This document shows positions 56,501-59,500 of a DNA stretch of 64,000 nucleotides, one piece after another (the stretch's first letter is position 1; each line of letters starts with the position of its first letter). Made by a program: the position numbers. The DNA lies in IMG/VR virus record IMGVR_UViG_2541047938_000006; one strand, written 5' to 3'. This DNA is from a virus. Taxonomy: Duplodnaviria; Heunggongvirae; Uroviricota; Caudoviricetes.

Positions 56501-59500
56501 CCACACAAACAGCATGAAACACATTGCGCCTGTGGTGTAACGCTTTCTCCCGTATCTCCGGTCTCTGTCTTTGTTCATCATCTGCACCTTCTGAATCATC
56601 AGAAGATGCCGCGCATCCGGCAGGACCGCCATCAGGCACCAACAAGCCGTCTGACGCTCACACCATACAGCCCGTTTTTCGCCATTCCCGTATACAGAAA
56701 GGTATTCACCGTCTTTGTGTTAATACCCATCTCACTGGCAAGGCGGCAGGGTCTCGACTGGCGGTAGACATAACCGAACATCACCACCATCTCTGACATC
56801 GTCAGCGGGCGGGCAGCACTGTTATACGTCCAGACGCCGTTGTGTATGGCATCACTTATCTGCTCACCATCGCGGAGCAACTCCGCATCCAGTTGCAGAA
56901 AATGACGCCCCTGGAACATACAGCGCATCAGCCTGCCCAGCAGGCCATCACTGATTATCAGCCAGGATTCGTCAAAGTCCGGGATATAACGGCGGTTCTC
57001 CGGCAGGAAAAACTCCCTCGCCAGTATCACACTGTGCCCCTTCAGTAACGCCTGCAGACCATACTCCAGATAGCGGTTCCTGGTAGCCAGAATCACCTTC
57101 ATCGCAGCACCTTCCTGTTTTTTATGCCCCATGAAAAACGGCAGACCAGAGTCCTGCGCCTGCCGCCATACTTCATGTCACTTTCAGCAATTAAAACTCG
57201 AAGTTAACGCCCATGTTGTAGGACACATCGCCATCACTCGCTGCAATACCCGCTTTCGCTGCGGTCTGCTCGTTGAAACGGTAACCAACACCCACGGCAA
57301 CAGCCTGTTTATCACTGTACCCCCCCAGGGCAGCAGTGGCGTTGAATTTCCCCACACTGTACGGCTGGAAAAGCCCCGCCAGCGCTGCACTCTGTGCTGC
57401 TGCACGCTTCATCTCTTCGTGATTCTCACGAATTTGACGCTGCTGGCTGTTCAGGCGTGCATTATGCTCCTGCAACTGGCGAGTATTGGACTGAATAGCC
57501 TGTGTATTTTTAGTAACCCGGCGGTCAACGCTACCAACTGCATAATCAATACGGTCTGTTCTGCCAGACAGAGCAACGAGACCATCATTGACGGCGATAG
57601 TTTTAGTCGCACCTTCTGCACGGGTAAGTTTTCCGTCAGGGTTCACACCAACTGTCGTTCTGGAGTCTGTATATTCACGAGACTTTTTCGCTTCGACTAC
57701 AAGGCGGGTATTCGTATCCTGAGCCAGTTGCTCAACACTGTCTTTTACACGGTCAACCTGACGAACGGTTGCAGCATCTGAGGGACGAGTACCGTCACTC
57801 AGACCACCAAGCACCCGGGTTTTATAAGCCTTACCCGGCTCTGCTTCATAACCGATATAAACCTCATTGTCACGGGTTGTGCGTGAATTAGCTCCTAATG
57901 CAACACTGTTTTTATTTGTTACTGTTGCCTTTGCCCCTAACGCAGTACCTTCTGTTGCATCTTTATCAACTTTGGCTCGGTTACCTGCTGCCGTGCCATA
58001 TATAGCCGTGTTATCAACAAATGCAACGCTTCCCAGGGCTGTAGATGCATTTGCATAAGCATATGTTCCCACTCCCAGAGCTGTACTTTGTTTACCGTCC
58101 GCAGCAGCCCATGAGCCCACTGCTGTTGACGCTTTTTCTGTAGCCCTAGCACCGTTACCAACAGCTACTGAGAACTCACCAGAGGCTTTCGCATCGCTAC
58201 CCAGAGAAACCTTCCCATTCTCCCCATCTTCGACGCTGAAACCTGTAATTTCTGTTTTTTCCAGGCCATACACCTTGTTGTACACGCCACGAACATCACT
58301 GTTTATCAGCTTGTGACCTGTTTTACCCTCAACAGCCTTTGCAAAATCTTTCAGCGCCGGGTCATGAAGTGTATGGGTGATACCCTTACCTTTAACGGTC
58401 ACATTACCTTTTGAATCAAATGTGAAAAGTGACCTCTTCTTGTCGTTTTTCTCTTTTACTTCGTATCTGAAGTTACCATTACCGCCTGTCTTTACAACTT
58501 CATAGGTGCTGCCATATTTAGCCTGTCCGCTCTTCGGCGAATCATCCTGCAACACTGAATATGTACCATTCTGCGCACTCACCCCACCACTCATCACCAG
58601 AAGCCCGGCCAGAGAAGATGACAGGAGTGTCATTGTAAACTTTTTACTCATTATGGATATCCTGTTAAATTATCTGTATACAAATCAGCCGCAACACCTC
58701 ACACTCATAAAAAAGTCTGATTAATTACGGCTTTTTTCAGGATATTCCGGAAATAAATTTAAAAATTAATTTCATAAATTTAGGATTTGTCTTACATTAT
58801 TCTGGGCATACCTGCTCACGCATACGACCACACCGCCGGAACAGATATCAGAAAAAACTTACCCCAGTCAGACTTGCTGTTTCACATCTGCTTACACTGT
58901 AATTTGTGAACAAAATTACAACATCAGAAAAAATTAACTATTCAGTTAACATAAAATATTTACAGGAGGAATAGTTCATGAGGGAAAGAAATGTTTCCCC
59001 CATATTTTTATCTGTTATTCCTGTGCCCAGCCAACCCTGTATGCCAGTATCTCATCCGCACTGGTCAGCTTTTCCAGCTCTTTCTTCATGGTGCGCTGCC
59101 GGACGTGGATTTCCATCCCTTTGGTGAACATCGCCTTCTCCGCCGCCTCACTGAGTGCCATCAGCGCCTCTGCCGTCATCGGGACGTCGTTATTCTCCGC
59201 ATCCGTCCAGAAAAAGCCCTCCGGCAGTATTCCTGCTTTCGCTGCCGCCACCGACGGCTCAAGACGCGTCTGCGTTGACTTCCCGTAGTCCCATTTACGC
59301 CCATTGTGCTCAAACGTGTAGTTCGCCGCTTCCATAGCATTACGCCAGGCGTTGATCTCGGCGGTTTTGAGTTCTCTGGCTTTTTCCGGGCTGATGGATG
59401 GCTGTACATATTCTGCAATTTCACCGGCCTCTCCTTTCTGACAAGCGGCATAAATATCCCGCCCGTATGCTTCGGTATCGCTGGCTGTTGCAGTGAAAGG

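Follow-up and report, generated by a model that had tools for sequence, protein, structure and literature searches.

Eib proteins, including those of LEE-negative Shiga-toxin producers, bind antibodies in a non-immune fashion, contribute to serum resistance and promote the formation of cell chains and clumps. The IgG Fc site of EibD and EibF reportedly lies in the left-handed coiled coil that follows the saddle, and the IgA site is said to be carried by the right-handed stalk of the EibC/D type. Beyond IbrAB and growth conditions, little is understood about the natural regulation of Eib. K-12 lysogens that carry whole eib prophages are said to make little Eib until ibrAB is added, implying that ORF-156, the product of the gene that follows eib, is not a sufficient activator in cis. 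According to the part of PMC7649339 that cites Sandt et al. 2002, IbrB enhances Eib expression.

The closest described loci are the eib genes of ECOR-9. Their GenBank records (AF151674-6 and AF151091) annotate orf-191, eib, orf-156, orf-60 and stem-loops in the same order and on the same strand as in the DNA studied here. This DNA is a stretch of 64,000 nucleotides, termed the window, that includes a 933W-like (Sepvirinae-type) prophage inserted in ynfG, which the prophage has cut down to an 84-bp stub. The interval of interest holds the usual lysogenic-conversion cassette, orf-191 / eib / orf-156 / orf-60, located in the slot after the tail-fibre genes; the eib allele is new and the cassette is known. 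The features considered below are as follows.

36997..38223, + strand: ibrA-like gene (PAPS_reduct and DUF3440, from Pfam hits)
38208..38852, + strand: ibrB-like gene (IbrB-like), overlapping the ibrA-like gene
56426..56444, no strand assigned: GC-rich hairpin 3′ of orf-60 (fold -15.4 kcal/mol, z=-5.2)
56450..56632, - strand: orf-60, 60 aa, 87-90% identical to ORF-60A/C/D
56632..57102, - strand: orf-156, 156 aa, 100% identical to ORF-156C
57134..57167, - strand: intrinsic terminator in the eib/orf-156 spacer (hairpin and T5 run)
57191..58651, - strand: eib allele, 486-aa trimeric autotransporter (Pfam, PDB match, exact RefSeq sequence)
58652..59014, - strand: AT-rich eib leader/promoter region
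58675..58683, - strand: TTGTATACA block, which contains the palindrome TGTATACA and precedes GATAAT; 24-32 nt 5′ of the eib ATG
58754..58782, - strand: AT-rich imperfect inverted repeat of 29 bp, TAAATTTA-N13-TAAATTTA, equivalent to the GenBank 'stem_loop' 103-131 nt upstream of eibC/D/E
59015..59602, - strand: orf-191 homologue (DUF4376, tail-fibre-associated), 195 aa from MNMNVEK; the mechanical ORF extends to 59722

The cassette is flanked on one side by tail-fibre genes (Phage_fiber_2 with collagen; DUF4376) and on the other by L0124-like 'internal virion protein' and Phage_Tail_Tip genes, which is the position between tail-fibre and tail genes given in a preliminary description of this DNA. 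The orf-191 homologue matches Pfam DUF4376 (E=9e-19) and PHROG 1141 'tail fiber protein', and is identical to ORF-191C/E at 184/195 positions. With its own leader and terminator, its atypical composition and its site between late genes, the cassette classifies as a moron. Lambdoid morons in this tail-fibre-distal position, such as lom, bor, nleA and further effector cargo, are likewise self-contained units among late genes, and in relatives lom, hok/gef and effector genes are found in the slot equivalent to that of eib; unlike these morons, the eib cassette has a second, regulator-like gene behind its terminator. The eib-less phage TL-2011c has other small genes in this slot. The paired ibrAB-like genes, named by PGAP 'phosphoadenosine phosphosulfate reductase' and 'IbrB-like domain-containing protein', belong to the same prophage and lie at its ynfG-proximal end, so the earlier claim that ibrAB shares a prophage with eib holds.

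The eib ORF product of 486 aa ends in MGVNFEF and is already present in RefSeq as an exact sequence (WP_021571283.1, "YadA-like family protein"). Five stretches match YadA_head (PF05658) and residues 428-486 match YadA_anchor (PF03895, E=2.3e-15). The PDB match to EibD (2xqh) has an E-value of 1.8e-106, and globally the protein is 86% identical to EibE and 81% identical to EibD. Residues 1-26, the signal peptide, are identical to those of EibC/D/E; mature EibD begins at Q27 (PMC12511318). The alignments and domain matches thus bear out the preliminary description of an Eib-like trimeric autotransporter with a signal peptide and a YadA-type C-terminal anchor ending in GVNFEF.

The protein is a mosaic in which residues 1-262 (signal peptide, N-terminal domain and head) are of the EibD type and residues 263-486 (neck, stalk, saddle and anchor) are of the EibE type. 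The beta-roll head (residues 150-262) matches the EibD head of structure 2xqh at 111/113 positions (98%), and the N-terminal domain has an 8-residue gap relative to EibD. Neck, stalk and anchor are 98% identical to EibE, the neck alone 87%. There is no difference from EibE in residues 301-486, including the stalk region 301-427, and none in the right-handed and left-handed stalks, the saddle or the anchor (59/59 residues); with EibD, the saddle shares 95% identity. EibE and EibD of ECOR-9 (P-EibE and P-EibD; AF151676 and AF151675; structures 2xqh and 2xzr) have the same flanking genes and stem-loops, but neither has this combination of head and stalk. Judged by these identities, the allele is a recombinant of an EibD-type head with an EibE-type stalk and anchor, and it illustrates head/stalk shuffling among eib genes. 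Because the EibC/D-type right-handed stalk is missing and has been replaced, the present Eib probably does not bind IgA. The protein would be exported by Sec, trimerise and insert its YadA-type barrel, and in the displayed lollipop the post-saddle coiled coil, a segment identical to that of EibE, would bind IgG Fc. Ig binding would in turn lead to Ig coating, serum resistance and cell-cell aggregation.

The spacer upstream of eib (58652-59014) is 363 bp long and has 33.3% G+C, compared with 52% for the prophage, in agreement with the AT-rich region of about 360 bp described earlier. It is near-identical to the regions upstream of eibC/D/E, and four blocks (TTTGTATACA, ATCAGATTTTCTTTA, GGAATATCCT and GTAAGAnAAATCCTAAA) are common to 10 diverged types of upstream region. 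The TTGTATACA block, which is found in 8/10 of these types, is a candidate core promoter or operator, and the 29-bp inverted repeat is a candidate protein-binding or curved-DNA site. A role of this repeat as a stable RNA hairpin was rejected (fold only -4 kcal/mol, z=0). Elsewhere in the 64-kb window TTGTATACA has one other copy, at 19735, against 0.32 expected, and neither it nor GGAATATCCT is enriched there; both motifs are absent upstream of the solo ORF-156 copies described below. For the gene strand, searches returned no strong match to the sigma-70 consensus in either the leader or the eib/orf-156 spacer, and Rfam (E<=1) gave no known RNA in the leader or spacers. Transcription of eib would start in the AT-rich leader and would depend on IbrAB supplied by the prophage itself.

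A terminator scan identified a GC-rich hairpin between eib and orf-156, CGGCAGGC...GTCTGCCG, that is followed by the T5 run and folds at -21.8 kcal/mol (z=-2.9). Among 12 distinct intergenic variants, 11 preserve both the hairpin and a run of T5-T8; in the plasmid variant L011 the hairpin is preserved and only GTTTCC follows. Since the terminator is strong and the spacer contains no recognisable promoter, expression of orf-156 in the lysogen may be very low. Downstream, the start of orf-60 overlaps the stop of orf-156 by 1 nt (TGATG). In the product of orf-60 the N-terminal half is basic and the C-terminal segment hydrophobic; the protein belongs to PHROG 9340, of unknown function. The hairpin at 56426..56444 has an A7 tract on the gene-strand side and is terminator-like for the + strand.

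The mechanical ORF of orf-156 (56632..57132, - strand) specifies 166 aa, with an upstream ATG that falls inside the T-run of the terminator and has no Shine-Dalgarno sequence. The true start is the ATG at 57102, 10 codons downstream, which is preceded at 7 nt by AGGAAGG and yields a product of 156 aa, as for ORF-156 in the eib entries of GenBank. The small receiver-like/HTH ORF of the preliminary description is therefore present and agrees with the predicted fold given below, with its start placed 10 codons further downstream; its standing as an addition to eib loci is lost, as the GenBank records of 2000 already list it, under the name ORF-156, next to each of the four ECOR-9 eib genes (A, C, D and E). 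Compared with the ORF-156A/C/D/E proteins of the ECOR-9 eib prophages (PHROG 6585), the present copy is 100% identical to C, and its identity is 99% with D, 97% with A and 68% with E. Nothing sets it apart from those loci, with which it shares its position, spacing and terminator. What is new for ORF-156 is its fold assignment, a selection test and its distribution.

No source has a function on record for ORF-156. It has no match in Pfam even at E<=10 and none in NCBIfam, and PHROGs give it no functional name. A word-indexed search yielded 44 matches, all E. coli 'hypothetical' proteins, and an exhaustive profile search of 1.84 billion representatives yielded 37, mostly fragments and none outside the ORF-156 family, which by these sequence searches is confined to E. 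coli. With dN/dS values of 0.07-0.21 and an ORF that is intact in 8 lineages, orf-156 is a real gene under purifying selection.

The gene is closely linked to adhesins of the Eib type. In viral contigs, an Eib anchor ends about 90 nt upstream of eib-type ORF-156 in 22/22 testable cases, and the eib-type ORF-156 of a plasmid and of a tail-spike prophage likewise lies behind an Eib anchor. Conversely, ORF-156 follows all 29 Eib-like trimeric autotransporter adhesins (TAAs) of 331-511 aa. Intact solo copies without an Eib gene occur beside nleA in an E2348/69-type prophage, upstream of kpsF and beside hpaBC, and solo copies also adjoin a perC-like gene, so ORF-156 is not exclusively tied to eib. 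Some of these solo copies are in non-phage chromosomal islands, and others are directly 3′ of lambda-type tail-fibre genes. At kps or hpa, tblastn detected no remnant of a degraded eib upstream of solo ORF-156. In eib-less Stx phages ORF-156 is a frame-shifted remnant, in a slot that also contains small ORFs.

The AlphaFold2 model of ORF-156 (pLDDT 90.1, pTM 0.86) has a shortened flavodoxin-like receiver of four strands followed by a four-helix HTH of the LuxR/GerE type. The top Foldseek matches in the PDB are all full-length regulators, FixJ, RcsB, DesR, StyR, EvgA and VpsT (E 8e-4 to 1e-2, prob 0.9-1.0), and those in BFVD are phage response regulators. By profile comparison with the PDB, ORF-156 matches only LuxR-type HTHs, and these weakly (E 0.05-0.25). 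The family has a conserved motif, LTMSEMVV...LAxEMGIxxKTVNTFLYxGxxKNGL. The predicted fold is thus NarL/FixJ-like, that of a regulator with two domains whose receiver is degenerate, and a regulatory role is plausible.

The predicted two-domain layout is shared with the NarL/FixJ family (FixJ, RcsB, EvgA, DesR, DevR), from which ORF-156 differs in several ways. It is 156 aa long, compared with about 200-220 aa for NarL/FixJ regulators; its receiver has only four beta-alpha units; ATRN replaces the acidic pair after strand 1; and Pfam Response_reg and GerE are not detected. Of the last HTH helix, the dimerisation element in NarL/GerE, only about 4 residues are left. A phosphorylation pocket is lacking in the model: strand 1 is followed by T7-R8-N9 (T7 and N9 invariant), strand 4 ends in D72-A73, strand 5 and the Lys are missing, and the only pocket residue is D52 at the end of strand 3. 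ORF-156 is thus not a canonical two-component response regulator, and the earlier designation of the neighbour as a regulator becomes a putative one, drawn from the predicted fold only, with no sequence model recognising the protein and no phosphorylation pocket in its receiver half. ORF-156 would instead be a phosphorylation-independent DNA-binding protein.

Small LuxR-type proteins with a non-phosphorylatable N-terminal domain are known in MatA/EcpR, TosE/TosF, BglJ, RcsA, GadE and DctR, which ORF-156 resembles in these respects. The genes for MatA and TosEF are located inside adhesin clusters, as orf-156 is immediately 3′ of an adhesin gene; in contrast to them, orf-156 lies behind a terminator and is carried on prophages and plasmids. 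Kinship was tested by hmmsearch of the ORF-156 family profile against K-12 DctR, GadE, RcsA, MatA, YjjQ, BglJ and RcsB together with 13 controls. The best match among these was BglJ at 5.7 bits, and the control EcpA ranked third. Alignments by hhalign to DctR, GadE, RcsA, MatA, BglJ and RcsB were in register and not significant, with all probabilities <5%; for BglJ, RcsA and RcsB, P was 0.009-0.02 (BglJ 0.009). With similarity insignificant in both searches, ORF-156 was rejected as a specific relative of the K-12 LuxR-type auxiliaries.

In the lysogen, read-through of the eib terminator would be the sole source of ORF-156, whose dose would accordingly track eib transcription; during lytic growth the protein would be made by Q-antiterminated late transcription. 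It might act back on the conserved leader of eib, or else on surface or motility genes of the host, in the way that adhesin-linked MatA/EcpR and TosE/TosF act on host genes. Local action would make ORF-156 a feedback regulator of eib that binds the leader blocks (the AT-rich inverted repeat, GGAATATCCT or TGTATACA), and either represses eib after enough read-through or cooperates with IbrAB. The strict synteny with Eib-type TAAs in prophages and on a plasmid, the conservation of leader blocks (two of them palindromic) across the 10 diverged types, and the decay of ORF-156 in Stx phages that lost eib are all consistent with such a loop. However, intact solo copies persist without eib and with unrelated upstream DNA, and the leader motifs are neither near these copies nor enriched elsewhere in the window; we regard local feedback as unlikely. 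Action in trans on host genes, with ORF-156 riding with virulence cargo as an RcsB-auxiliary-type partner resembling MatA, BglJ, RcsA, GadE or DctR, or as a TosE/TosF-like motility suppressor, would link production of the adhesin to flagellar loss or to a change of capsule or envelope. In favour of this role, solo copies adjoin other surface or virulence loci (nleA, kpsF and the perC-like gene). Architecture and size fit LuxR-type proteins with degenerate N-terminal domains, RcsB in complex with the flhDC and rprA promoters is among the Foldseek matches, and the N-terminal ILATRN resembles LIITRD of DctR and FLMTKD of GadE. There is also precedent, as the portion of PMC10392849 that cites Engstrom 2014 describes LuxR-family genes that end an adhesin operon and suppress motility. 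Yet similarity to every K-12 member tested is insignificant and the dimerisation helix is truncated, and regulation of host genes in trans is put forward only tentatively, as a possibility.

The same gene order can also be read as serving the phage and not the adhesin, with ORF-156 and the translationally coupled membrane peptide ORF-60 forming a late factor for superinfection exclusion, lysis timing or anti-defence, and with the linkage to eib reflecting a shared cargo slot. The late-operon site behind a terminator that Q-modified polymerase would pass, the 1-nt stop/start overlap, the solo copies directly behind tail-fibre genes, and the small ORFs and ORF-156 remnants in the slot of eib-less Stx phages would all fit. 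Against this, plasmids too carry the TAA-terminator-ORF-156 unit, non-phage chromosomal islands hold ORF-156 by itself, orf-60 is missing at several eib-type loci including that of eibE, and the predicted fold is that of a DNA-binding regulator, which together make a service to the phage quite improbable. For the locus as a whole, a known eib cassette in which Eib and ORF-156 have the roles proposed above is a likely explanation.

A broader proposal, which we consider distinctly doubtful, is that ORF-156 is the founding member of a family of regulators, as yet unrecognised and restricted to E. coli, that are mobile, NarL/FixJ-like and independent of phosphorylation and that plug virulence cargo into host circuits. 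The cargo of this putative family would include the Eib-type adhesins of both prophages and plasmids, the nleA prophages, the kps capsule region and perC islands. Its members might act as RcsB auxiliary partners, or as a motility or capsule switch dosed by read-through of the adhesin terminator.

ORF-156 has gone unnamed beside eib genes for 25 years, and it is conserved, under selection, regulator-shaped in its predicted fold and an almost constant companion of one class of adhesin. If it is not regulatory, the locus is a textbook moron. Control of eib, or of surface and motility genes of the host, would account for part of the erratic expression of Eib in wild strains and transferred lysogens, and a regulatory ORF-156 would represent a new family of phage-borne regulators.

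The eib cassette is a known one, and the preliminary description recognised it correctly as an Eib-like trimeric autotransporter gene with a signal peptide, a YadA-type anchor ending in GVNFEF and about 360 bp of AT-rich upstream DNA, lying between tail-fibre and tail genes of a prophage that also carries ibrAB. The small regulator-like neighbour, which that description did not count among the parts of eib loci, is by contrast a standard, if unnamed, component: in GenBank records AF151674-6 and AF151091, orf-191, eib, orf-156 and orf-60 follow one another in this order on one strand, with a stem-loop on either side of eib. 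In the window the cassette is flanked on one side by a collagen-like tail fibre (Phage_fiber_2) and a DUF4376 gene, and on the other by an L0124-like 'internal virion protein' and a Phage_Tail_Tip gene. Its parts are as follows.

Features of the eib cassette
58652-59014, upstream of eib: leader, 363 bp, 33.3% G+C (prophage 52%)
57191..58651, minus strand: eib allele, 486-aa ORF, C-terminus MGVNFEF
57134-57167, past the eib stop: terminator, hairpin of -21.8 kcal/mol followed by U5
56632..57132, minus strand: orf-156 as the mechanical ORF, 166 aa
56450-56632, minus strand: orf-60, N-terminal half basic, C-terminal tail hydrophobic

The tail-fibre gene (59613-61684, minus strand) is split into overlapping ORFs, 60434..61684 and 59613..60476, by a frame-shift within the collagen-like repeats; the tail fibre of strain JNEC-KY173 is a single 644-aa gene. 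The tail fibre of the window prophage may be defective, or the repeat may be mis-assembled.

The product of the eib allele matches Pfam YadA_head in five stretches as well as YadA_anchor, and NCBIfam trimeric-autotransporter models match it partially, every one under its cut-off. Among PDB sequences it matches the EibD fragment 2xqh best (E=1.8e-106) and a YadA anchor next, and megablast against phage records returned the four original ECOR-9 records, P-EibD, P-EibC, P-EibE and P-EibA. Global identity is 86% to EibE, 81% to EibD, 74% to EibC and 41% to EibA. In alignment the protein appears as a clean mosaic of EibD-like and EibE-like stretches.

Identity of the eib allele product to EibD and EibE
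Residues 1-26, signal peptide: EibD 100%, EibE 100%
Residues 27-149, N-terminal domain: EibD 79%, EibE 63%
Residues 150-262, beta-roll head: EibD 98%, EibE 82%
Residues 263-300, neck: EibD 70%, EibE 87%
Residues 301-486, right-handed stalk, saddle, left-handed stalk and anchor: EibE 100%, EibD lower

The JNEC-KY173 allele, too, matches residues 263-486 at 100% identity. Because RefSeq already holds the exact protein (WP_021571283.1, 'YadA-like family protein', two contigs), and because a 2026 survey of 13 STEC genomes, JNEC-KY173 among them, recorded between one and eight Eib-like genes in each strain and described how diverse they are (PMC13534694), the allele is a new recombinant of known parts in a well-known family. 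Binding of IgG Fc would be expected, since the coiled coil beyond the saddle is identical to that of EibE, and IgA binding would not, since the EibC/D-type right-handed stalk has been replaced. The mapping of these sites reportedly goes back to Leo et al. in 2011 and Sandt & Hill in 2001.

The ATG of the 166-aa mechanical ORF lies within the terminator T-run and has no ribosome-binding site; the ATG at 57102 is preceded by AGGAAGG and yields a product of 156 aa, 100% identical to ORF-156C, 99% to D, 97% to A and 68% to E. One base is shared between the stop of orf-156 and the start of orf-60, which is translationally coupled to orf-156. The window ORF-60 is 87-90% identical to ORF-60A/C/D; many eib-type loci conserve the gene, but it is lacking at several, among them the eibE locus. 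ORF-156 has no Pfam or NCBIfam match, even at E<=10, and belongs to PHROG 6585, labelled 'unknown function'; no source assigns a function, all database members being 'hypothetical protein' and the literature search likewise empty. Searching 5.8 billion proteins gave 44 matches, and an exhaustive profile search of 1.84 billion gave 37 representatives, mostly fragments; the family is tiny and confined to E. coli.

An AlphaFold2 model built from 22 family members is confident (pLDDT 90.1, pTM 0.86), with four beta-alpha units in the first half (strands 2-6, 24-27, 46-51 and 67-72) and four helices in the second (102-113, 118-125, 129-142 and 150-153). At the top of the Foldseek list against the PDB stand only full-length NarL/FixJ-family regulators (FixJ, RcsB, DesR, StyR, EvgA, VpsT, LiaR and VraR; E 8e-4 to about 2e-2, probability mostly 0.9-1.0), BFVD ranks phage response regulators ahead of sigma-70 region 4, and the family profile finds only four proteins among PDB sequences, all LuxR-type HTHs (E 0.05-0.25). 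Every structure search thus points to the NarL/FixJ family as the predicted fold class, and the conservation peak, LTMSEMVVMFGYVY..P..LA.EMGI..KTVNTFLY.G..KNGL, reads as a GerE-type HTH. The earlier reading of a receiver-like/HTH protein agrees with the predicted fold. The receiver half is a degenerate one: where the acidic pair should follow strand 1 it has ATRN, Asp52 alone is retained (and invariant), and the fifth strand and the Lys are missing. Assignment as a two-component response regulator is thus not possible and was rejected; the protein is similar to those LuxR-type proteins of E. coli that are not phosphorylated. Alignments made directly with DctR, GadE, RcsA, MatA, YjjQ, BglJ and RcsB were in register but none was significant, and no specific kinship to these is claimed.

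ORF-156 is intact in 8/8 lineages compared, with pairwise dN/dS of 0.07-0.21, the deeper pairs being near or past synonymous saturation. Its linkage to eib was surveyed at 49 IMG/VR loci.

ORF-156 homologues and upstream Eib-type anchors
Full-length eib-type ORF-156 (68-100% identical), 23 loci: anchor upstream in 22/22 with enough upstream DNA, ending about 90 nt away
Intact solo ORF-156, 180 aa, 11 loci: no anchor upstream
Frame-shifted remnant in Stx-type phages (residues 21-77 plus 119-156), 15 loci: no anchor upstream

ORF-156 follows each of 29 Eib-like genes of 331-511 aa, and the pair recurs at equal spacing in a tail-spike prophage by prfC and on a plasmid, where a large autotransporter adjoins it. 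On the plasmid loci (L011-L014, 1-5918; Rep3 replicon, ccdAB, vapBC-like) the short Eib-like gene and ORF-156 lie directly behind a >1439-aa trimeric autotransporter and a BamE/OmpA-domain gene; these adhesins may be the Yal/Saa-related plasmid-borne adhesins of PMC13534694.

Solo copies occupy three settings. Those of 180 aa (68% identical) lie directly behind lambda-type tail-fibre genes and adjoin nleA, which encodes a type III effector, in prophages of EPEC/EHEC type (L048-L058, with L053 at 4001-4543; EPEC E2348/69, L023, 6001-6449, left uncalled by PGAP). Copies of 171 aa (63% identical; L019-L022, about 6001-6516) have a type VI secretion gene (vasL/impA) on one side and kpsF, with which capsule region 1 opens, on the other, and may be capsule-linked regulators. 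Copies of 164 aa (55% identical; L007/L009/L010, 6001-6495) belong to an island, where they come after hpaBC with a PerC-family gene about 3 kb away. No eib remnant was found by tblastn upstream of the kps and hpa copies. In eib-less 933W/Stx-type phages the remnant (L060-L073; L024, 4001-4106; L006, 6564-6752), part of which is annotated as a 62-aa hypothetical protein, occupies the same slot past the tail-fibre genes, and its persistence there suggests that the cassette was ancestral in these phages and then lost. Since linked pairs recur yet solo copies exist, the linkage of ORF-156 to Eib-type adhesins is strong, not exclusive.

The terminator hairpin and its T5-T8 run are retained in 11/12 distinct intergenic variants, varying only at loop positions or wobble pairs; the plasmid variant keeps the hairpin with a short T tract. 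The start of orf-156 comes about 31 nt after the T-run, and the promoter search found no consensus in this interval. The sequences ahead of eibC, D and E are nearly identical to the leader. Among ten diverged leader types, TTTGTATACA occurs in 8/10, immediately ahead of GATAAT, and ATCAGATTTTCTTTA, GGAATATCCT and GTAAGAnAAATCCTAAA persist, the last adjoining a 29-bp AT-rich inverted repeat, the stem-loop of the GenBank annotation. Folding ruled out a stable RNA structure for this repeat, and no Rfam family matches the leader region. The eib gene would be a self-contained moron, with orf-156 and orf-60 reached in the lysogen only by read-through of the eib terminator and in lytic growth by Q-antiterminated late transcription.

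Surroundings of the eib prophage in the window
1285-25354: Qin-like cryptic prophage, adjoining ydfJ
2621..3211: Pin-type invertase of that prophage
3309..3884: its tail-fibre assembly gene
3884..5344: its Nu1-terminase/tail-fibre fusion ORF
16152..17465: its ISNCY transposase
24059..25354: its integrase
35636-39465: end of the eib prophage, with an antirepressor-like gene (ant), ibrA/ibrB-like genes and a SocA/Panacea-domain gene
38941..39465, minus strand: the SocA/Panacea-domain gene
39616-47994, minus strand: 2792-aa ORF, LPD5/LPD38 domain-containing protein in relatives' annotation

Beyond the Qin-like prophage the order is rspBA to ynfF, a ynfG stub (84 bp, left where the prophage interrupts ynfG), ant, ibrA-like (PAPS_reduct and DUF3440 domains), ibrB-like, the Panacea-domain gene, the 2792-aa protein (probably a giant protein that the 933W-like prophage builds into its virion or ejects) and lastly the tail and head genes of a 933W-like podophage. 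The ibrAB-like genes thus lie inside the same prophage as eib, about 18 kb from it; the ynfG-proximal end that carries them matches the phage-end segment known as the 'IbrAB island'. Whole eib prophages reportedly gave little Eib in K-12 lysogens that lacked ibrAB (Sandt et al., 2002), which argues against ORF-156 as a sufficient activator. Expression of eib would be IbrAB-dependent, and Eib would confer IgG Fc binding, serum resistance and aggregation; a passage of PMC7649339 cites Sandt et al. 2002 for enhancement of Eib expression by IbrB.

ORF-156 itself would be a phosphorylation-independent DNA-binding protein whose dose tracks eib transcription. By analogy with MatA/TosEF, for which a passage of PMC10392849 cites precedent, its targets may, at a rather low probability, be genes of the host for surface structures or motility. 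The eib leader, as a site of feedback, is a slightly less likely target, and a phage-directed role exercised jointly with ORF-60 seems improbable. What ORF-156 gains here is a predicted fold class, evidence that it is under selection and a survey of where it occurs, its regulatory role being a prediction from the model; with the recombinant eib allele, these are what is new at the locus, the cassette itself being known.
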